Shown piece by piece: positions 35,567 to 47,307 of a stretch of DNA of 64,000 bases. Within the stretch, counting starts at the first letter, position 1, and the number at the start of each line of letters is the position of its first letter. The translations under genes and the position numbers were made by a program. The stretch spans positions 11,879 to 75,878 of the forward strand of contig CACIOP010000004.1 of NCBI GenBank assembly GCA_902588315.1. The letters are read 5' to 3'. Below the pieces are notes generated by a model that was not told where the DNA came from, made no database searches, and saw nothing but the letters and a program-made list of their open reading frames with translations. The DNA comes from an uncultured Pelagibacteraceae bacterium (GTDB lineage: Bacteria; Pseudomonadota; Alphaproteobacteria; Pelagibacterales; Pelagibacteraceae).

Positions 35567-36391
35567 ATGACTTATCTATCATCAAATCAACTTAAACAGT
35601 ATGAAGATCAAGGATACATATCCCCTATTGAAGTTTTGTCTAGTAGTGAAGCATTAGAGGCAAGAGAAGAAATAGAATTGATTGAAAAAAAAATGCCAAA
35701 TGAAATTGATAAATCGGGAAGATATAATGTTCATTTAATTTCACCAAAACTTGATTCGATTGTTCATAATTCAAAAATTTTAGATGCAGTTGAAAGTATT
35801 ATTGGAAAAAACATATTAGTTTGCAGTACTACTTTGTTTATTAAAAACCCTAAAGAACAAGGTTTTGTAAGTTATCACCAAGATGCAAAGTACATAGGAT
35901 TAGAACCACTCAATTGAGTTACAGCATGGGTAGCATTAACAGATTCAAACGAAAACAACGGATGTATGAAAATGTGGCCTAAATCACATTTAAATATTAA
36001 AGATCACAATGAGAAATTTAATGAAGGCAATTTGCTTACTAGAGGACAAACAGTAGAGAATGTACCTGAAGACGAAGTTAAATCTATAGAACTAAAAGCT
36101 GGTCAAATGTCTTTACATCATCCAAGAGTAGTACATGGGTCAGGTATTAACAAAAGTAATGACAGAAGAATAGGATTTGTTATCCAAAGCTATATAGGGA
36201 CAAATGTAAAACAGATCTTAGGCAAAAATAGTGTTCAAATTGCAAGAGGAGAGGATAACTATCATCATCATGAAATTATAAATAGAACTAAAGCTCTTAT
36301 GAATAAAGAAAGTATTTTTCTTCGAAAAAAAGAAAATGATTACTTGCAAGAAATTTTTTATAAAGGTGCAAAACAAAAAGGTTCTTATTAG
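35567..36391 (+). pseudogene. Phytanoyl-CoA dioxygenase (PhyH) family Fe/2OG oxygenase interrupted by one in-frame TGA at 35915-35917
   Basis: ORFs 35567..35917 and 35966..36391 share a frame. Reading through gives HQD..LEPLN*VTAWVALTDSNENNGCM..LKAGQ..HH..VHGSG.N..RR. Confidence 0.8.
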
Positions 36392-38480: not shown

Positions 38481-39218
38481 TTAATTTCTAAATGTTTTAA
38501 AAATACTTACAGATATAAAATAAATATTTGAAACAACCCATAAAAACATAAAGAAAAACTCATATACCGAGCTTATGTTTAGGTCCTTTATTAAAATAAG
38601 TAAAATCGAGGTGATAAACCAAAATATCGCAAAAAAAATTGATAAATTTTTAAATTTTTTAACCCTTAAAGGATGAATACATTTTAAAGGAGAAAATTTT
38701 AGTAATATTAATAAAATTAAAAATATCAAATTAAAATTTTGGCTAGTACCAAAAATATAAAAGTAAAGTACAATTACATTCCAAATAGCAGGGAAGCCAT
38801 TATAGTAGTTATCATTTGTTAAAATATTCAAGTTCACATAAGAATAAATAGAAATAAAAATTAAAATTACAGGAATTAATAAAATAAACTGGTCAGGTAC
38901 ATACCTAAACCAATAAATCATTACCGATGGTATTATAACATAGTTAAAAAAATCAATTATACTATCCAGCATTTTACCATCAATATGTGGTAAATTTTTT
39001 TTCACATTAAATTTTCTAGCTAAAGTTCCATCAACACTGTCTATTAAAAATGCAAACCCAAGCCAAAGAAAAGCCGCTTTTTGGTTGTTATTCATAACAG
39101 CAATTAAAGCAAAAAAACCAGCAACGATTCCTAATCCAGTCAATAAATGAACAAGAATACCAAGAAATCTATCTTGTTTAATAAGTTCATAAGTTTTAAT
39201 ATTTTTTTCTTTACTCAT
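38481..39218 (-). CDS. pcs: Phosphatidylcholine synthase-like CDP-alcohol phosphatidyltransferase
   Basis: VHLLTGLG; DGTLAR-x8-P-x3-G-x3-D-x3-D (Pcs-type spacing); GFPAIWN; HPLRV. Confidence 0.8.
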   Translation of the reverse strand: MSKEKNIKTYELIKQDRFLGILVHLLTGLGIVAGFFALIAVMNNNQKAAFLWLGFAFLIDSVDGTLARKFNVKKNLPHIDGKMLDSIIDFFNYVIIPSVMIYWFRYVPDQFILLIPVILIFISIYSYVNLNILTNDNYYNGFPAIWNVIVLYFYIFGTSQNFNLIFLILLILLKFSPLKCIHPLRVKKFKNLSIFFAIFWFITSILLILIKDLNISSVYEFFFMFLWVVSNIYFISVSIFKTFRN

Positions 39219-39231
39219 TTTGTTTCTAAAA

Positions 39232-39924
39232 TTATCTAGCCAATTTTATGAAAATATCTCCCATTCCACTTTGTAATTGTTCATCAGGCGTATTGTTTCT
39301 AAATTCACAAAATAAACCAGTCACTTGATGATTATCTATTTTGACAATTTCGGATTTATCACAAGATTTAGCTTGATGGAATAATCCAATAACTAGCCTA
39401 TTATTTAGTTCTACAACTTGATGTTTTGATATACTTACACCGTCACAAAAATAATCTCTATTTACTTGATTAGGAAAATTTTTTTTACCACACGGGTTTT
39501 TAATGGTTAAAACATAAAACTCTTTTTCTACATCTTTAAATTTATGTTTCATTTTGTCAACTTTTGAATATTTCATTAAATCACATGAACATGGAATGCA
39601 GCACCTATAATAATCACCACAAACTTTTTTATTTGTACCAACTTCTTCTAAATATACTTTTTCAGGATCAGCATTAGGATCTATTAATGAACCAGATACA
39701 GCACAATAAAGTTTATTAAACTCAACAAATTCTTGATAAGTAATATCTTTGTTTAATATATGTTTAAAAAATTTTGGACCAGCAGCATTTCTATTTCTAT
39801 CTGGGAATATTTTACTCCATTCATTTACTAACTCTTGATAATAATTTCTTTCTTGTGCTTCTAAACTTGAGTTATGAAAAAAAACTAAAAATACGGTAAA
39901 TATTATAAAAAAAAATTTTTTCAT
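39232..39924 (-). CDS. Secreted cysteine-rich hypothetical protein
   Basis: Signal peptide MKKFFFIIF..LEA; 10 Cys including CCIPCSC. Confidence 0.75.
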   Translation of the reverse strand: MKKFFFIIFTVFLVFFHNSSLEAQERNYYQELVNEWSKIFPDRNRNAAGPKFFKHILNKDITYQEFVEFNKLYCAVSGSLIDPNADPEKVYLEEVGTNKKVCGDYYRCCIPCSCDLMKYSKVDKMKHKFKDVEKEFYVLTIKNPCGKKNFPNQVNRDYFCDGVSISKHQVVELNNRLVIGLFHQAKSCDKSEIVKIDNHQVTGLFCEFRNNTPDEQLQSGMGDIFIKLAR

Positions 39925-39931
39925 AAAAACA

Positions 39932-41359
39932 TTAATTATTTTGTTTAATTTCCAATGTTTTATTTAATTCATTAATTTCAAAAGTGTTTTCTTCTCCATT
40001 TGTCCAAGTAACAACAATTTTAATATTTCTCTCATTTTTTCGAATTCCGTAATGTGCCACTGGCTCCATTTGACACAAGTATCCTGAGCCTGAATCTATT
40101 GTTTTAGAATGAGTTCTTAAATTTGAAACAAGAGTTACAGTAGCGCCTCTTGCTGGAGCACCGTGCATATTAATTGGCTTAATCCTTAAGAAATTATTTT
40201 TTTTTGAATTTGCCTTATATAAAGTTAAAGGCTGATAACCAGATTCTCCGTGAGATATTAAAAGCTCAAGTATTCCATCACCATCTATATCGGCTACTGC
40301 AGCTCCTGTTCCTAATCCATTAGTTTCTAAAGCATTTCCAATATTTATTTCTTTGAACTCACCATTATCTAAAATTTTAAATAATTTATTTGGCTCGCCA
40401 ATATTATTCATGAATACTTCGTCATAACCATCATTATCAAAATCAGCAGAGATTACTGTTCTAATTCTCGATGGGGCGCTAAATTGTTTGTCAGCTATAT
40501 CTACAAACTTATTATTTTTTAAAACAAATGCTCGATGAGGCCCTTCCCAATTTGAAGTTAATATATCTAATCTACCTCTATAATAAATATCACTTAGCGC
40601 AGTTCCACGACCGTTTTGAAAGGTATCATCAACTGCATAATCTTTTGCAAGTTCAACAAAATTTCCATTATTATTATAATATAAAAAATTCTCCCCTCTT
40701 TCATTTGCAGCAAAAATATCAGATCTTCCAGATAAAATATTACCTGAAATAACCGCTCTACCTCCAGTAATTTTATCAATACCTAGCTCTGAAGCTTTGT
40801 CTATTATTTCATTTCCATCTTTTTCATAAAATCTTGTAGGCCCACCATAATTTGCAACATATATTCCATAAGCTCCATTTCCATTTCTATCTACACATAC
40901 AACTGATCTACCTGCTGTAAGATTTAAATTTTTTTGGTTTATTTCTAATTCAAATAAATCAAAAAATTTATTTCCATCAAAATCTAACAACCTATCTGAA
41001 TATCTTTTGTTTCCACTATATGTGTCTGTATTTAAAAAATATATTTCCTCATAACCATCCTGATCAATATCACACGATGCTACTCCTATAGTTTTACGAT
41101 TTTTGTCTATAAATACACTCTGGTTAATTGAATTAAACAAAATACCCTTTTTATGAGCTAAGGCTAAATTGTTAAATCCAAATCCAGTTACAATAAATTC
41201 AAAATTTCCATCGTTGTTTACATCTGAAACGGACACTCCATAACTTAATCTAGGTTGATTTTCTAATATTTGATAAGTTATATCTTCAAAGAAATCGTCT
41301 GACTTGGAATAATTAACAATATTTAAAAATATAAATAAAAATATAAATAATTTTTTCAT
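39932..41359 (-). CDS. CRTAC1-like FG-GAP beta-propeller protein with ASPIC/UnbV domain
   Basis: Signal peptide; DxDxDG-like repeats (DVNNDG, DIDQDG, DFDNDG, DIDGDG); C-terminal GSGYLCQMEPVAHYG. Confidence 0.88.
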   Translation of the reverse strand: MKKLFIFLFIFLNIVNYSKSDDFFEDITYQILENQPRLSYGVSVSDVNNDGNFEFIVTGFGFNNLALAHKKGILFNSINQSVFIDKNRKTIGVASCDIDQDGYEEIYFLNTDTYSGNKRYSDRLLDFDGNKFFDLFELEINQKNLNLTAGRSVVCVDRNGNGAYGIYVANYGGPTRFYEKDGNEIIDKASELGIDKITGGRAVISGNILSGRSDIFAANERGENFLYYNNNGNFVELAKDYAVDDTFQNGRGTALSDIYYRGRLDILTSNWEGPHRAFVLKNNKFVDIADKQFSAPSRIRTVISADFDNDGYDEVFMNNIGEPNKLFKILDNGEFKEINIGNALETNGLGTGAAVADIDGDGILELLISHGESGYQPLTLYKANSKKNNFLRIKPINMHGAPARGATVTLVSNLRTHSKTIDSGSGYLCQMEPVAHYGIRKNERNIKIVVTWTNGEENTFEINELNKTLEIKQNN

Positions 41360-41459
41360 TTAATTTTCACTAGACTAAAAATTTAAAATTAAAACTGTTA
41401 ATATTGGCATAGTTAATTTAGTGTAATTTTAATAGTAAATTTAAAAAATTTAATTAACT

Positions 41460-41927
41460 ATGAGTGATATTAACAAAGCACCAAATGATTTTTTCAATAA
41501 TTGGAATAAAATTAATTCTATGTCATATAGAAATGTTATTGAACTACATGTTAAGAGAAGTAGCGAAAAAAAAATATTAGCTTTAATTCAATTTGAATTA
41601 AATCAGTTTTCAGAAAATGTTCAAAAAGATTTGTTTATTTCTGAAACAAGTTCTTTTTATCAAGAAATATCTAATCTTTTCAAAGACTCAAGCTGGTGGT
41701 CAACCGCTACAGTAACAGATGCTTGTAAATATTATTTAAACTGTGCAAGAAATAATATTTCTCATTTTAAAGACTATGTAGAGGCAGATAGTGATTTATC
41801 CCAAAATGAAAAAAATGAGATATTTGCCCTGTATCAATTGTGTACTTTATTTGTTTCTTGGAATGCTATTAAAGAAAAAAAGATCAGAGAAATTATAGAT
41901 ATTAGAAAAAGTTTATTTTTTAGATAA
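41460..41927 (+). CDS. Hypothetical protein
   Basis: 155-aa ORF filling an otherwise empty interval; no motif recognised. Confidence 0.6.
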   Translation: MSDINKAPNDFFNNWNKINSMSYRNVIELHVKRSSEKKILALIQFELNQFSENVQKDLFISETSSFYQEISNLFKDSSWWSTATVTDACKYYLNCARNNISHFKDYVEADSDLSQNEKNEIFALYQLCTLFVSWNAIKEKKIREIIDIRKSLFFR

Positions 41928-41938
41928 AAATCATCAAT

Positions 41939-42166
41939 ATGAATAAAGAAAATGCAAGTAAACTCTGGAAAATTATTCAGGAAGCTGGCGATTATTTGGT
42001 AGGACAATTACCGGACCATCCAAATCATCCTAAGGGAAGAAACCCATATGCTCATGTTGCCATATGTGTAAAAAGTAAATTCAATGCAAGCTACAAAGAT
42101 ATCCCTGATAAAAAATATAATGACGTTATTGAATATATTGAATTTTTAAAACAAAATCCAAGTTAA
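41939..42166 (+). CDS. Small hypothetical protein (ORF6C-like C-terminus)
   Basis: 75 aa, LPDHPNHPKGRNPYAH then F.ASYKDIP..Y...I. Confidence 0.7.
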   Translation: MNKENASKLWKIIQEAGDYLVGQLPDHPNHPKGRNPYAHVAICVKSKFNASYKDIPDKKYNDVIEYIEFLKQNPS

Positions 42167-43282
42167 TTATTGTTTTGGAAAATAATCTTTTAACTCACCT
42201 TCTCGGTAAACATCAGCAGTACAACAATGTAAACCTCCGCCAAAAGCATAGGCATCTCTAAGTTCTACTGGTATAACTTCCATTCCTAATTTATTCAACT
42301 GTTCAGCTTGATATGTTTCACTTTTTTCCACACATACAGTCTTAGGGTCTAATACTAAAACATTCATTGATAGCCAAGTTGATGAATAACATAATGGAGG
42401 TGGTTCGTTATGTGCTGGTTGAGCACTATCAACAATTTCCCAACCATTGTCCTCAAATAATTTTCTTTGTTCCTTAGGAAGTCTTCTTTGTGGGTTATTG
42501 ATAATTAAACCCTCTTTAATTGGGGTAAAAGTTGCATCAATGTGAATTGGATAAGGATCACCTGGAAAGTTAACCGCATGAACTCTGTGATCTTTATAAT
42601 GTCTCTTTAGCCAATCAATTCCTTTTAAATTTGTTGTAAAACCATGTTGAACAACTAAATCTTTTCCAAATCTCAATACATCTGCTGCATCAAATAAAGG
42701 TTCTTCTTCAGTGGTTACAAAATATTTTTTTTCAGTCCACTCTAACCTTTTTTGAACACCAATTTTATCTGAAAGATAATCTTTTCTGTAATCTGCATCC
42801 GTTAATCTTGGTTTTGGAGCAGATTCGTGTCTCATATTAGGATCTTGATTATAATAATCTTTTAGAAGTGGTCGGTAACATAAGTATTCAAACCAACGAC
42901 AACGATAACTCATTGTAGCTTCTAAAATTTCGTTTCCTACTGTTAACAAAACATCTCTTGGAGGCATACAACCAAACATGGTTTCTGCTTCCCAATCAGG
43001 TGTAGATGTTTTTTGATTAAAATCTATTGGTGTTGGTCGATCAACTTTAATACCTCTTTTTTCAAGCATGTTTGAAAAGTTATCTAATAATTCATTTGCT
43101 TTATCGACTGTGTCTTTTGTTCTTGGTCCAAACTGACCTCTCATATCACTGTCTTCTGGAACTTTTGCATCTAATGCTGGTTCTGGTGCTGGTATACAAG
43201 TACCATCCGCTCTGCCAACAATTACATGTTTTAACGGATCCCACTCATTCCAACTATTAACAATAGTTTTATTTTCGCTCAT
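42167..43282 (-). CDS. Glycine amidinotransferase (AGAT)-like amidinotransferase
   Basis: VNSWNEWDPL..VIVG, PRD, SKPR-like SAPKP, EPLFDAAD, HIDATF, WLSMNVL, GGGLHC (Asp-His-Cys triad). Confidence 0.92.
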   Translation of the reverse strand: MSENKTIVNSWNEWDPLKHVIVGRADGTCIPAPEPALDAKVPEDSDMRGQFGPRTKDTVDKANELLDNFSNMLEKRGIKVDRPTPIDFNQKTSTPDWEAETMFGCMPPRDVLLTVGNEILEATMSYRCRWFEYLCYRPLLKDYYNQDPNMRHESAPKPRLTDADYRKDYLSDKIGVQKRLEWTEKKYFVTTEEEPLFDAADVLRFGKDLVVQHGFTTNLKGIDWLKRHYKDHRVHAVNFPGDPYPIHIDATFTPIKEGLIINNPQRRLPKEQRKLFEDNGWEIVDSAQPAHNEPPPLCYSSTWLSMNVLVLDPKTVCVEKSETYQAEQLNKLGMEVIPVELRDAYAFGGGLHCCTADVYREGELKDYFPKQ

Positions 43283-43287
43283 AAAGA

Positions 43288-44505
43288 TTAGTTTTTTATA
43301 ATATTATGCTCAGGGCCGAAAGGAAATTTTGTAATATTTTCTGCTCCATCTTTACCAATCACTAAAATATCGTGTTCTCTATATCCACCTGCACCAGGAT
43401 TACCTTCTGGGATCATTATCATTGGTTCCATAGACACCACCATATTTTCCTCAAGAACAGTATCAATATCTTCTCTTAATTCTAAACCAGCTTCTCTTCC
43501 ATAAAAGTGAGAAAGCATACCAAATGAATGTCCGTAACCAAAAGTTCGATACTGAAGATAACCAAGTTCAGCAAAAAGTTCGTTAAGCTCATGACAAATA
43601 TCAGAACATTTAACACCTGGTTTAATTAATTCTAATCCACGTTTGTGAACTTTAACATTTGCCTCCCAAGCTTTAAGAGAAGCATCATCGGCATGATCTA
43701 AAAATAAAGTTCGCTCAAGTGCAGTGTAGTAGCCTGAGATCATTGGAAAAGTATTTAAAGATAAAATATCTCCTTTAACTAATTTTCTATTAGTCTTTGG
43801 ATTGTGAGCCCCATCTGTATTGATACCCGATTGAAACCATACCCAAGTGTCCATGTACTCTGCACCTGGATAGCTTTTAACAATCTCTCTTTCCATTCTA
43901 TCTCTTGCTGCTATTGCTACTTCAATCTCCGTATTATCCTCTCTAATATTTTTAACTATTTCTTCACCGCCAATGTCTGCAATTCTTGCACCATTTCTAA
44001 TGATCTCAATTTCTTCGTTTGATTTAATCATTCTAAGTTTCATTAGATCTTTTGAAACATCGCTAAACACAGAGAAAGTAAAAATAGACCCTATTTTTTC
44101 TCGCATGTCTAAAGTGACATGATCATTTTCAATTCCAATATTTTTTGGAGGTTCATCCCTTCCAATAATTGAGACAATAGCTCTTAAAAAATTATCTCTT
44201 TTCCAATCAGTATAAATAACGTTATCACAATGGGATCTGCGCCATGGTTGGCTTGCATCAATGTTGGCTGAAATTGTTGAGATTTTATTTTGAGTGATCA
44301 CACATCCGTATGGTCTTCCAAAAGAACAATAAATAAAACCTGTGTAATATGCAACGTTATGCATAGATGTTAAGATAACCATATCTAAATTATTTTTATT
44401 CATCACTGATCTAAGTTTACTTACTCGATCGTTATATTCTTTATCAGTAAATGGTAATTTTACTTTTTCACCGTTTTTAAGTTCAAAAAAATCTGGTCGT
44501 TCCAT
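43288..44505 (-). CDS. Creatinase (creatine amidinohydrolase, M24 fold)
   Basis: NGEK..PF..EY..R, YCSFGRPY, QPWRR, WFQSGINTDGAHNP, GYYTALERT, YGHSFG..YGREAGLELRED, SMEPM, GYREHD, PEHNII. Confidence 0.95.
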   Translation of the reverse strand: MERPDFFELKNGEKVKLPFTDKEYNDRVSKLRSVMNKNNLDMVILTSMHNVAYYTGFIYCSFGRPYGCVITQNKISTISANIDASQPWRRSHCDNVIYTDWKRDNFLRAIVSIIGRDEPPKNIGIENDHVTLDMREKIGSIFTFSVFSDVSKDLMKLRMIKSNEEIEIIRNGARIADIGGEEIVKNIREDNTEIEVAIAARDRMEREIVKSYPGAEYMDTWVWFQSGINTDGAHNPKTNRKLVKGDILSLNTFPMISGYYTALERTLFLDHADDASLKAWEANVKVHKRGLELIKPGVKCSDICHELNELFAELGYLQYRTFGYGHSFGMLSHFYGREAGLELREDIDTVLEENMVVSMEPMIMIPEGNPGAGGYREHDILVIGKDGAENITKFPFGPEHNIIKN

Positions 44506-44506
44506 A

Positions 44507-45412
44507 TTAATTTAATGCTATATATCTTTTGTTCCATCTCATTATTAAACTGTAATAAAATATAGATACAAAAAGAAAAAAACCACCGATTATTGTATTT
44601 GTGGATGGTACTTCATTAATTCCAAATAATGGCAACCAAACCCAAAAAATTCCACCTACAACTTCAGTTAAAGATAAAAGTGTCAATTCTGCTGCTGGTA
44701 TCGCTTTAGATCCAATTGAATATAAAATTAAACCAAAACAAACTAGTGTCCCATGCAAAGAAAATAAAGCTCCGTTATAGCTAGATGAAAAGAAAACTAA
44801 GTTGTTTGATAAAATCATAATTGTTGCAAACACAAAACAAAAGAAACCAGCAAAAGCTACCGTTGTGAATTTTGGTGTTTCTTTTCTCCATCTAAGAGTT
44901 ACAGAAAAAACTGAGAAACCAATTGAGGAAGTTAAACCAAATACAAAACCAATTAATGATTTTTCACCAGTATTTCCAAGTGCCATAATAATAATACCAA
45001 CTGTTGCAATTATTATTGATATCCAAACATTGAGAGAAATTTTTTCTTTTAAAAATAAAAATGCTAATAATGCTGTAAAAAAAGGCATTGCTGCCAAACA
45101 AAGTAAAGTAACTGCGGCGCTAGTATTTGTAATTGAATAAATAAATGTAATCATGGCGATCCCCAATCCAGATCCACCAATTACCCCTGATAATCCTATT
45201 TTATAATAGTTTTTGTAAAAATTTTTTCCTTCCTCGAAAAATAAATAAAGATTTAATAAGATGAAAATTGTTAAACCTCTGCCAAAAATATACTGCCAAG
45301 GTACCAATTGCGGATTATCCATGTATCGAACCACTAATGGGCCAAACGACCACAATAGACCAGCAAAAAGTACAACGGGAATAGCTACTCTTGGATTTCT
45401 CAACTCTAACAT
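44507..45412 (-). CDS. DMT/EamA family transporter
   Basis: About 10 TM, FLKEKI, AAELTLLSLTEVV..WVW..E.P; ends 1 nt before the creatinase start. Confidence 0.88.
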   Translation of the reverse strand: MLELRNPRVAIPVVLFAGLLWSFGPLVVRYMDNPQLVPWQYIFGRGLTIFILLNLYLFFEEGKNFYKNYYKIGLSGVIGGSGLGIAMITFIYSITNTSAAVTLLCLAAMPFFTALLAFLFLKEKISLNVWISIIIATVGIIIMALGNTGEKSLIGFVFGLTSSIGFSVFSVTLRWRKETPKFTTVAFAGFFCFVFATIMILSNNLVFFSSSYNGALFSLHGTLVCFGLILYSIGSKAIPAAELTLLSLTEVVGGIFWVWLPLFGINEVPSTNTIIGGFFLFVSIFYYSLIMRWNKRYIALN

Positions 45413-45461: not shown

Positions 45462-46706
45462 CTAAACTAAATTTTGATTTGAAAGGTTGGGGAAAAAACA
45501 ATCAACGATATCTCCCTTTTTAAATTTTGATTTACCTGCTGGTAACAAAACCCAAATATTTGATTTTACAAATGATTTAATTCTAAAAGACTCTTGACCT
45601 TTTAAAATTTCAACATTTATTTTTCCATTCTTAGTTGTGCTTAATTGGCTTTTTACAAATCTTGTAAAATTCTTTTTTTTATCAAAACTATTTGTCAAAA
45701 TAGCTTTAATTGATTTTTCTTCTGATAATCCTAAAGCATTTAAAATATATGGAATTACAAAAAATCTAAAACATGCAGCCGAAGAAATTGGATTTCCAGG
45801 GAGTCCGAATATCGCCTTTTCTTTCCCTTTAATTTTTGCAAACATTATTGGTTTTCCTGGCCTTATTGCAGCACTTTTAAAGTAGCTTGATAACTTAAAT
45901 TTTTTAACAACATCAGGTATAAAATCAAACTTGCCTGCAGACACTGCACCTGACGTAATAATAATATCATCTTTAGATTTAATTAATTTATTTATTTTTT
46001 GTTTAAAAATATTTTGGTGATTATCTCTTAAAATACTTCCACTTTTAAAATTAAATAAAAAATTTTGATTTAAGTTTTTAATATAATGTGTGTTAGAATT
46101 TCTTACCATCCAATTTGGAATATTGTCTTTGTTTGATATTTCGTTTCCAGTTGAAAAAAATAATATATTAATTTTTTTTTTTACTTTAATTTGTTTTATT
46201 CCTAAACTTTTAAAAGCTAAAATATGATTTGGTTGAACAATTGTATTTTTTTTTATTACAACCTCTCCTTTTCTATAATCTGAACCTACAAACCTAACAT
46301 GATTAAATTTTTTTATTTTTTGATCAATTAAAATATATTTTTTATTAGGCGCAAAAATTATTTGTTCTATAGGAATAATTGTATCAAAACCCTTTGGTAT
46401 AATTCCTCCAGTCATTATTTCGGCAGTATCAAACTTTTTTGTTTTTTTTTTAAATGGTTTCATTCCTGCAGCAATTGAACCAATTATTTTAAATTTTTTC
46501 GGGAATTTTTTTTTTAAACCATTAGTGTCTTTTGAATTAATTGCAAACCCATCAAATGCAGCATTATTACCTGCTGGATAATTTATATTAGAATAAATAT
46601 TGGTAGAAACTACTCTATTTAGAGAATTTACACTCTTTATAGTTTCATCTTTAATTTTAATTTTTGCTTTTTTTAAAATTGTCTTTGATTTTTCGTAACT
46701 AATCAT
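45462..46706 (-). CDS. moeA: Molybdopterin molybdotransferase
   Basis: NAAFDGFA, IMTGG, STGNE, TSGAVSAGKFD, RPGKP, GLPGNP. Confidence 0.94.
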   Translation of the reverse strand: MISYEKSKTILKKAKIKIKDETIKSVNSLNRVVSTNIYSNINYPAGNNAAFDGFAINSKDTNGLKKKFPKKFKIIGSIAAGMKPFKKKTKKFDTAEIMTGGIIPKGFDTIIPIEQIIFAPNKKYILIDQKIKKFNHVRFVGSDYRKGEVVIKKNTIVQPNHILAFKSLGIKQIKVKKKINILFFSTGNEISNKDNIPNWMVRNSNTHYIKNLNQNFLFNFKSGSILRDNHQNIFKQKINKLIKSKDDIIITSGAVSAGKFDFIPDVVKKFKLSSYFKSAAIRPGKPIMFAKIKGKEKAIFGLPGNPISSAACFRFFVIPYILNALGLSEEKSIKAILTNSFDKKKNFTRFVKSQLSTTKNGKINVEILKGQESFRIKSFVKSNIWVLLPAGKSKFKKGDIVDCFFPNLSNQNLV

Positions 46707-47307
46707 TTTTGAATATTTCTTCTGCTTTTTTTAAATCTTCTTTTGTATTTATATTAAAGAAAGGATCATTATTTGAAAACTCCATATTAATTATTTTTAC
46801 CCCAATATTATTAGCCCACAACTCTACTTTTCTTTGTCCATTTTTTAGATCCTTCTCTAACTTATCTATTAAATTAATCGACCATAAGCCAAATATATTA
46901 TGTCGTGTGTTGTTTGACTTAATAAAAAATAAATCACTTTCATTGAAATTAATATTGTGAATAAAATCTTTAAGTATTTGTCTTTTAAAAAAAGGTGTAT
47001 CTACAGGGAAAGTTGCTATCCATTTGTAGTCTTTTTGATTTTCTTTTATCCATTTCATAGCTGATAAAACTCCACCTAACGGACCAAGACCTTTTTCAAA
47101 ATCTTCAATTATTGAAATTTTTTCTGAATTATGAAAATTAATTTTATTATTTGATACTATTAAGAGTTCCTTGAATTCATCAATAATTTCAGTCAACATA
47201 TGATCAATTAACAATTTACCAGCTAACTTTACTTGGGATTTGTCTTCTCCAAATCTTTGTGACTTACCGCCTGCTAGCACAGTGCCTAAAATATTGTTAT
47301 GATCCAT
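46699..47307 (-). CDS. mobA: Molybdenum cofactor guanylyltransferase
   Basis: LAGGKSQRFGEDK, GPLGG, PVDTPF, FFNINT..D. Confidence 0.94.
   Translation of the reverse strand: MDHNNILGTVLAGGKSQRFGEDKSQVKLAGKLLIDHMLTEIIDEFKELLIVSNNKINFHNSEKISIIEDFEKGLGPLGGVLSAMKWIKENQKDYKWIATFPVDTPFFKRQILKDFIHNINFNESDLFFIKSNNTRHNIFGLWSINLIDKLEKDLKNGQRKVELWANNIGVKIINMEFSNNDPFFNINTKEDLKKAEEIFKND

Follow-up and report, generated by a model that had tools for sequence, protein, structure and literature searches.

The window analyzed here, 64,000 nucleotides of an uncultured Pelagibacteraceae bacterium (contig CACIOP010000004.1), carries an EamA/DMT transporter gene, a creatinase gene and a gene for an enzyme resembling L-arginine:glycine amidinotransferase (AGAT) in one tight minus-strand run. 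We propose, with a probability of roughly 0.38, that this amidinotransferase (AT) is a creatine:ornithine amidinotransferase, which would form sarcosine and arginine and act as a nitrogen-saving twin of the creatinase beside it. The active-site cysteine of the AT would accept the amidino group of creatine and hand it on to ornithine, giving sarcosine and arginine. From the same substrate the creatinase would form sarcosine and urea, and most Pelagibacter would be unable to recover the urea nitrogen. Sarcosine would then be turned by sarcosine oxidase into glycine and one-carbon energy. A ping-pong mechanism with the reversibility of AGAT, if the AT has one, would also let free sarcosine be exchanged into creatine, and guanidinoacetate may be a substrate as well. 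We infer creatine and sarcosine as the second substrate pair, as we do the direction of the reaction and any role of the transporter. This reading is preferred because it joins five lines of evidence: the two enzymes swap places in one operon slot, they pair recurrently, urease is rare, the protein rises under nitrogen limitation, and labeled creatine appears in seawater incubations. The broader proposal, that the AT salvages amidino groups into arginine from either creatine or guanidinoacetate, is in our judgment probable.

The Creatinase and the Amidinotransferase

The transporter gene (44507..45412, minus strand, 301 aa) is separated by 1 nt (44506) from the creatinase gene (43288..44505, minus strand, 405 aa), which is separated by 5 nt (43283-43287) from the AT gene (42167..43282, minus strand, 371 aa). 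The first-pass annotation had described three same-strand genes with these gaps and had stated that both enzymes keep their catalytic motifs. Re-checking of the coordinates upheld the former, and the creatinase residues and AT triad, which align to known enzymes, bear out the latter. The transporter matches Pfam EamA (E 5e-17), and we assign it neither a substrate nor a direction.

The middle gene is, by its sequence and its matches in structure databases, a full-length two-domain creatinase (creatine amidinohydrolase) with creatinase-specific active-site residues. Solved creatinases (EC 3.5.3.3; PDB 1chm, 7yto, 1kp0) align with it from end to end at E 1e-148 to 1e-162 (1chm, E 5.6e-162), and prolidases are far weaker matches, at 7e-26 at best. 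F62, R64, H234, Y260, E264, R337 and E360 are identical to the P. putida sequence, and we take these residues to have catalytic roles in creatinase. Homology thus predicts conversion of creatine to sarcosine and urea. We saw no difference between this protein and known creatinases, and SAR11 creatinase has already been noted as a core gene of subgroup Ia (PMC3686209). What differs from described creatinases is the pairing and slot exchange with an amidinotransferase, which we did not find in the literature searched. No paper on a link between the two enzymes or on an arginine:sarcosine amidinotransferase was found there either, in a search that covered few subscription papers. The supplements of PMC11485210 (minus one scanned file) and PMC5069961 held nothing relevant, and the main text of PMC3160333 does not mention creatine or amidino.

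The AT sequence is best matched by human AGAT (E 4e-87), followed by SxtG (2e-65), HsvA (9e-61) and StrB1 (9e-52). Its AlphaFold model (pLDDT 92.5) superposes on AGAT (4jdw) with a TM-score of 0.90 at 42% identity, and the DDAH and ADI structures listed reach 0.62 or less. Foldseek returned transferases at E 2e-44 to 1e-35 and hydrolases at 1e-13 or weaker, and the NCBIfam DDAH and ADI scores are far under cut-off. Sequence and model thus place the AT in the amidinotransferase (pentein) family, nearer the transferases than the DDAH/ADI hydrolases. Some AT homologs carry the NCBI name "serine/threonine protein kinase," which is contradicted by fold and motifs.

D198, H247 and C353 of the AT align to human D254, H303 and C407, the Asp-His-Cys triad named for human AGAT in PMC3684758. 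We aligned 172 sequences and defined the clade as the 160 with >58% identity to the query, within which the triad residues are kept in 159, 158 and 160 sequences, respectively. The motifs FG[CT]MPPRD, QHGFTTN, FPGDPYPIHID, CYSS and GGGLHC are near-invariant across these 160 sequences. Human AGAT residues R322, S354, S355, D170 and D305, which we take to bind arginine and ornithine, correspond to R266, S300, S301, D110 and D249 of the AT. Since the equivalents of R322, S354 and S355 are kept, we infer that arginine and ornithine are one substrate pair. The human-type flap at position 300 (Asn300, Met302) is absent, and Tyr244 and Ile246 stand there, each in 157/160. By sequence, the AT belongs to a compact clade of marine alphaproteobacteria that has an active-site signature of its own. 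A FastTree phylogeny of 99 rows (no human or CyrA row included) groups 23 clade rows with support 97. A one-residue insertion before the PRD motif, considered as a specificity clue relative to human AGAT, was dropped since other relatives have it too.

Comparison With Known Amidinotransferases

Vertebrate AGAT (GATM; EC 2.1.4.1; PDB 1jdw, 4jdw) shares with the AT the fold, the Asp-His-Cys triad and the equivalents of D170, D305, R322, S354 and S355. It differs in that N300 and M302 are replaced by Tyr and Ile and in the clade motifs FG[CT]MPPRD, QHGFTTN and CYSS. Unlike the vertebrate enzyme, the AT has no detected partner in guanidinoacetate methyltransferase (GAMT) or phosphagen kinase and sits among catabolic genes. 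The other prokaryotic amidinotransferases, i.e., CyrA/AoaA, SxtG, Pseudomonas AmtA, Erwinia HsvA and Streptomyces StrB1, have the same triad, and CyrA shares with the AT an aromatic residue at position 300 (PMC3684758, PMC4887976). SxtG, HsvA and StrB1, the members compared by sequence, score under human AGAT. All of these serve the synthesis of secondary metabolites, whereas the AT is a Pelagibacter core gene (36/36) among central and catabolic genes. The label gatM in PMC3870248 Table S2 is a KEGG-type annotation.

Four eukaryotic sequences (P0274, P0275, P0277, P0138) fuse an AGAT domain to GAMT. Their AT domains are 40-45% identical to ours and fall outside the bacterial clade within the same larger branch, with Ala at position 300. 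One of them, P0274, is from a Gymnodinium smaydae transcriptome and matches solved GAMT in the PDB at E 5e-43. Because GAMT is fused, these proteins likely make creatine, and protists with such fusions may supply creatine to seawater. The fusions occur in both domain orders.

These likenesses bear on a different reading, in which ordinary AGAT chemistry runs in reverse, guanidinoacetate and ornithine yielding glycine and arginine. Creatine would then not be a substrate, and the creatinase would be a parallel module for a co-occurring compound. We regard this as rather doubtful. It is consistent with human AGAT being the closest solved structure, with the aromatic residue (Phe245) that glycine-using CyrA/AoaA also have at the Asn300 position (PMC3684758), and with the AGAT-GAMT fusions of marine-type eukaryotes in the same larger branch. 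The glycine product would meet the glycine need of SAR11, and 49 of the best 80 loci have a threonine-aldolase-like gene next after the AT. Left unexplained are the exchange of AT and creatinase in one slot and the creatine labeled through sarcosine (PMC9321204). No report of Pelagibacter using guanidinoacetate came up in the literature searched.

Further amidinotransferases were observed among the relatives. In three proteins of ~1070 aa (P0271-P0273), an amidinotransferase that shares 53-56% identity with the query is fused to a glycosyltransferase-2 region, and the amidinotransferase part is a close sister group of the AT clade in the FastTree phylogeny. A fusion of AT and creatinase was seen neither among 7 longer homologs (weak evidence) nor among 22 long or odd matches scanned. 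Two Pelagibacteraceae genomes encode a second, distant amidinotransferase of 33-34% identity (L122, G185:C1:244199-245023; G009:C3:92869-93693). An IMG/VR contig labeled as a giant-virus bin holds one of 44% identity beside pyridoxal phosphate enzymes (L235:4657-5799). Outside the class, an AT 63% identical to ours heads a biosynthetic-looking run (L111; G395:C63:1-9632) of a radical SAM protein, two 2-oxoglutarate-Fe oxygenases, an EPSP-synthase-like protein and an aminotransferase.

Gene Neighborhoods in SAR11

The AT was found in 36/36 other genomes of the same genus and in 6/19 genera of the family, and its nearest named relatives are from Pelagibacteraceae (93-99% identity). Creatinase lies directly before the AT in 34/36 of these near-complete same-genus genomes; the other two lack creatinase. 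Locus counts within SAR11 were made on the best 80 of 582 loci. Creatinase is adjacent to the AT in 43 of them and further off in one; in 35 it is absent and the transporter directly adjoins the AT, and one is undetermined. A threonine-aldolase-like gene 3′ of the AT is present in 49, absent in 25 and undetermined in six. Conserved linkage, for which a neighborhood survey had been suggested, thus stands for the SAR11 genus and recurs in two other lineages, and fails at many individual loci. The three genes are not always together.

In other Pelagibacteraceae genera a single operon slot is occupied now by the AT, now by the creatinase. The slot lies directly upstream of a EutA-like gene, and in it we found the AT alone in five loci (L112-L114, L248, L249), creatinase alone in six (L242-L247) and both enzymes in two (L117, L118). 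Creatinase also stands alone behind the transporter in L240 and L241. These loci were picked for holding one of the two genes, and their genomes are 55-91% complete. Neighbors of the EutA/EutD-like slot (L112, L114, L118, L119, L243, L246, L249, L108) include a luciferase-like monooxygenase, a PF06684 protein, an alpha/beta hydrolase and an aldehyde dehydrogenase, a setting that we take to resemble a trigonelline degradation cluster.

The first-pass annotation had placed the transporter in one operon with the two enzymes; in other genera it is not dedicated to them. Eleven Pelagibacteraceae loci (L319-L322 and L324-L330) have the transporter with neither enzyme behind it. It ends a run of molybdenum-cofactor genes in seven of these (L324-L330) and follows ETF-QO in the four from genus g2 (L319-L322), three of which have a dimethylglycine-dehydrogenase-like gene and sarcosine oxidase genes nearby. 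The setting of L319-L322 hints that the transporter carries an intermediate of the betaine pathway. The transporter and the AT as a fixed core was also considered and fails outside the genus.

Distribution and Neighborhoods Beyond SAR11

The AT is present in 53/251 genomes of a Rhodobacteraceae-like family (f8, so assigned from the named homologs P0072 and P0097 in the same branch), in 33/81 genomes of the order of genome G961, and in 4/300 genomes of an even class-wide sample. It is ~77-86% identical across the three alphaproteobacterial lineages. Creatinase lies within 1.2 kb of the AT in 4/44 loci of the Rhodobacteraceae-like family; three of the four share other neighbors and may be one event. 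The two genes are adjacent in 4/21 wide loci of the order of G961. In that order creatinase is present in 22/33 AT-positive vs. 7/47 AT-negative genomes, a comparison that omits one AT-negative genome and in which related genomes are not independent; in-frame stops occur in one of the 22.

Elsewhere the AT keeps varied company. Single loci place it beside a dimethylglycine-dehydrogenase-like gene and BetI (L189), a GbdR-like regulator (L188), a homocysteine methyltransferase (L187) or a urease cluster named by eye (L217). One AT belongs to an operon ending in soxB (L239), and another faces arginase and ornithine cyclodeaminase (L184).

Such neighborhoods raise the possibility that the AT strips or transfers the amidino group of some other guanidino compound, such as taurocyamine, 4-guanidinobutyrate, agmatine or a guanidino polyamine, within osmolyte or polyamine catabolic cassettes. 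An agmatinase-like ureohydrolase lies within 6.5 kb of the AT in 10/21 loci of the order of G961 and directly upstream of it in L108, and polyamine-type ABC genes and ectoine-hydrolase-like genes recur near the AT. The active-site motifs of the clade differ from those of human AGAT, and a bioRxiv preprint ties marine gatm to taurocyamine by KEGG annotation only. We nevertheless consider another donor unlikely. No taurine or gamma-aminobutyrate pathway gene recurs beside the AT among the annotated neighbor clusters, HsvA, a polyamine amidinotransferase, scores under human AGAT, and the creatinase link is left unexplained.

Nitrogen Metabolism and Expression

Urease is encoded in the window genome (G000:C3:88095-89792) and in only 4/36 other same-genus genomes, and HTCC1062 and HTCC7211 are without it (PMC8437039). 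Urea carboxylase was over cut-off in 0/5 genomes. SoxB was over cut-off in 5/5 same-genus genomes and in 1/5 representatives of genera without the AT. The first-pass annotation had reported no GAMT and no nonribosomal peptide or polyketide synthase (NRPS/PKS) in the window. We found no GAMT in the genome's own assembly (best E 0.73) or in 231 loci, and it turned up in 0/5 genomes in a search without a positive-control genome; phosphagen kinase was likewise found in 0/5 genomes. The 14 window ORFs scanned beyond the immediate neighbors, a part of the window, include no NRPS/PKS match, in agreement with that annotation.

Expression data come from HTCC1062, which has the syntenic run moeA, C134_0686, creatinase, gatM and threonine aldolase (PMC3870248 Table S2); orthology of gatM (C134_0688) to the AT rests on gene order and annotation. 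In stationary phase, nitrogen-limited cells had 1.44-fold as much GatM protein as nitrogen-replete cells (q 0.006) and 0.89-fold as much creatinase (q 0.023), with no mRNA change (PMC3870248 Table S2). The rarity of urease and the rise under nitrogen limitation fit AGAT chemistry in reverse equally well.

Observations on joint transcription of the run point both ways. Across 12 HTCC1062 arrays, creatinase mRNA correlates with the other three genes at r 0.65-0.85. The gatM mRNA is flat, with r 0.11 to the transporter, 0.18 to moeA and 0.50 to creatinase. This pattern speaks against one simple transcript or else for an additional promoter. Contigs from marine RNA runs cover all three genes in 4/4 runs (three studies), and some span the transporter-creatinase junction. 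These four, out of 24 runs listed, were chosen because they contain the stretch; DNA carry-over is possible, and junction contigs cannot show one transcript.

Net flux might also run forward, from arginine and sarcosine (or glycine) to ornithine and creatine (or guanidinoacetate). Together with creatinase this would be a two-step bypass of arginase, and where creatinase is missing the product would be stored or exported by the transporter. Several observations suit such a route. Arginine deiminase (ArcA), AstA and SpeA are over cut-off in 0/5 genomes, as is rocF-type arginase, for which only the two ureohydrolases of the window's own genome were typed; both pass the agmatinase cut-off and fail the arginase cut-off. 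ArgG is kept in 4/4 near-complete genomes and was not found in the window's own assembly, which is 83% complete. The HTCC1062 proteins were made with ammonium as the sole nitrogen source of the medium (PMC3870248). Conservation among nine neighboring genes is highest for the AT, with a median identity of 94.6% (creatinase 87.4, transporter 84.1, moeA 68.0) over 17 loci that were chosen for an AT identity of 96% or less. Forward flux would also explain the labeled creatine directly. It would, however, lose two nitrogens for each arginine, and most of these cells have no urease, yet the protein rises under nitrogen limitation. Lineages with the AT only would lose glycine or sarcosine carbon, and PMC8437039 labels one SAR11 ureohydrolase an arginase. 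A net forward direction is accordingly quite improbable in our estimate.

Labeled Creatine in Seawater

Glycine betaine labeled with heavy isotopes gave rise to 13C3,15N1-creatine in North Pacific water (PMC9321204). At the northern site the share of this isotopologue in the pool went from 0.04% to 2.2% within 4.5 h and reached 8-10% by 36-50 h; at the southern site it went from 0.08% to 5-8%. Glycine label was not detected in the same incubations, as reported there. The authors concluded that creatine was formed from sarcosine via an "unidentified enzyme" or a reversible creatinase, and SAR11 dominated the bhmt transcripts (PMC9321204).

If creatine is accepted by a ping-pong amidinotransferase, labeled sarcosine would be exchanged into it irrespective of the direction of net flux. 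Creatinase has no covalent amidino-enzyme intermediate, and its reverse reaction would need urea. Labeled creatine could possibly also arise in a small population by a route from glycine and labeled S-adenosylmethionine.

Points Against a Creatine-Using Enzyme

Several results weigh against creatine as the substrate of the AT, and the main objection is structural. D110 is kept in 159/160 clade sequences, and its human equivalent presumably binds the N-H that is methylated in creatine; the family has no known N-methylated partner. We know of no amidinotransferase that uses a secondary amine such as sarcosine. The second substrate is also unreadable from the Y244/I246 signature because flap residues do not predict the acceptor: CyrA uses glycine with a Phe/Ser flap, and the AmtA mutant given Pro/Asn still does not (PMC4887976).

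The genomic objections concern linkage. Creatinase is missing from the 35 SAR11 loci counted above, and 40/44 AT loci of the Rhodobacteraceae-like family are without creatinase in the stretch fetched. Co-occurrence of the two genes at the genome level is not enriched in that family (39/53 vs. 131/198, p 0.33), and in the order of G961 the agmatinase-like ureohydrolase is commoner near the AT than creatinase. Slot sharing could instead stem from osmolyte-catabolic genes that are independent of each other and lie together in a cassette. Neither enzyme has a dedicated importer linked to it.

Further objections concern the published data. The isotope data are community-wide, with no organism named, and one untargeted creatine feature in Table S2 also lists a 13C2,15N1 trend and an impossible 13C5,15N1 trend (PMC9321204). 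The GatM rise is modest, lies under the authors' 1.5-fold line and is accompanied by flat mRNA (PMC3870248).

Amidino salvage, the role first suggested for these genes, is therefore upheld only in part. The recurring linkage, the rare urease, the rise of the protein under nitrogen limitation and the failure to find GAMT or phosphagen kinase in the genomes searched favor it. The AT standing mostly alone in Rhodobacteraceae-like genomes, the SAR11 loci missing creatinase, the transporter without both enzymes in other genera and the HTCC1062 AT and transporter mRNAs that do not co-vary count against it.

Flanking Sequence of the Window

Upstream on the minus strand are moeA (45462..46706), which ends 49 nt before the transporter gene and may share its transcript, and a mobA-like gene (46699..47307) that overlaps moeA and was named by eye from sequence. 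The transcription run may thus exceed three genes. The window has no Rfam match, and so no known riboswitch, and a promoter/terminator scan was at or below chance (23 sites vs. 31 expected).

A convergent 75-aa ORF on the plus strand (41939..42166) abuts the AT stop, where many relatives have the threonine-aldolase-like gene that is missing at this locus. Beyond it lies a variable block (38481-41927) with a phosphatidylcholine-synthase-like gene, a Cys-rich 230-aa protein without a family and an FG-GAP/ASPIC repeat protein, a trio found together also in L017 and L039. The block also holds a 155-aa protein without a family that is present in 14 loci. Further along, at 35567-36391, a 141-aa ORF, preceded by one of 116 aa, corresponds to no more than the C-terminal part of PhyH. 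Relatives have a single 274-aa PhyH gene at this position, which may be split in the window assembly.

Significance for Pelagibacter

Creatinase is near-universal in Pelagibacter and urease is rare, so splitting of creatine would discard two of its three nitrogens. An AT acting on creatine would retain these two nitrogens in arginine and spare the cell the expensive final steps of making it. No same-genus genome searched was without the AT, which is also well conserved across three lineages; therefore, the flux could be ocean-wide. We put forward, tentatively, that the clade is an undescribed L-arginine:sarcosine (creatine:ornithine) amidinotransferase that made the sarcosine-labeled creatine of the North Pacific incubations. 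Such an enzyme would join glycine betaine demethylation, creatine and arginine in the most abundant ocean bacteria without a methyltransferase, and amidino nitrogen would be recovered without urease. The AT is thus an assayable candidate for the sarcosine-to-creatine enzyme reported from seawater. If it proves to be plain AGAT in reverse, it would still be an unstudied use of the amidinotransferase family in primary metabolism.

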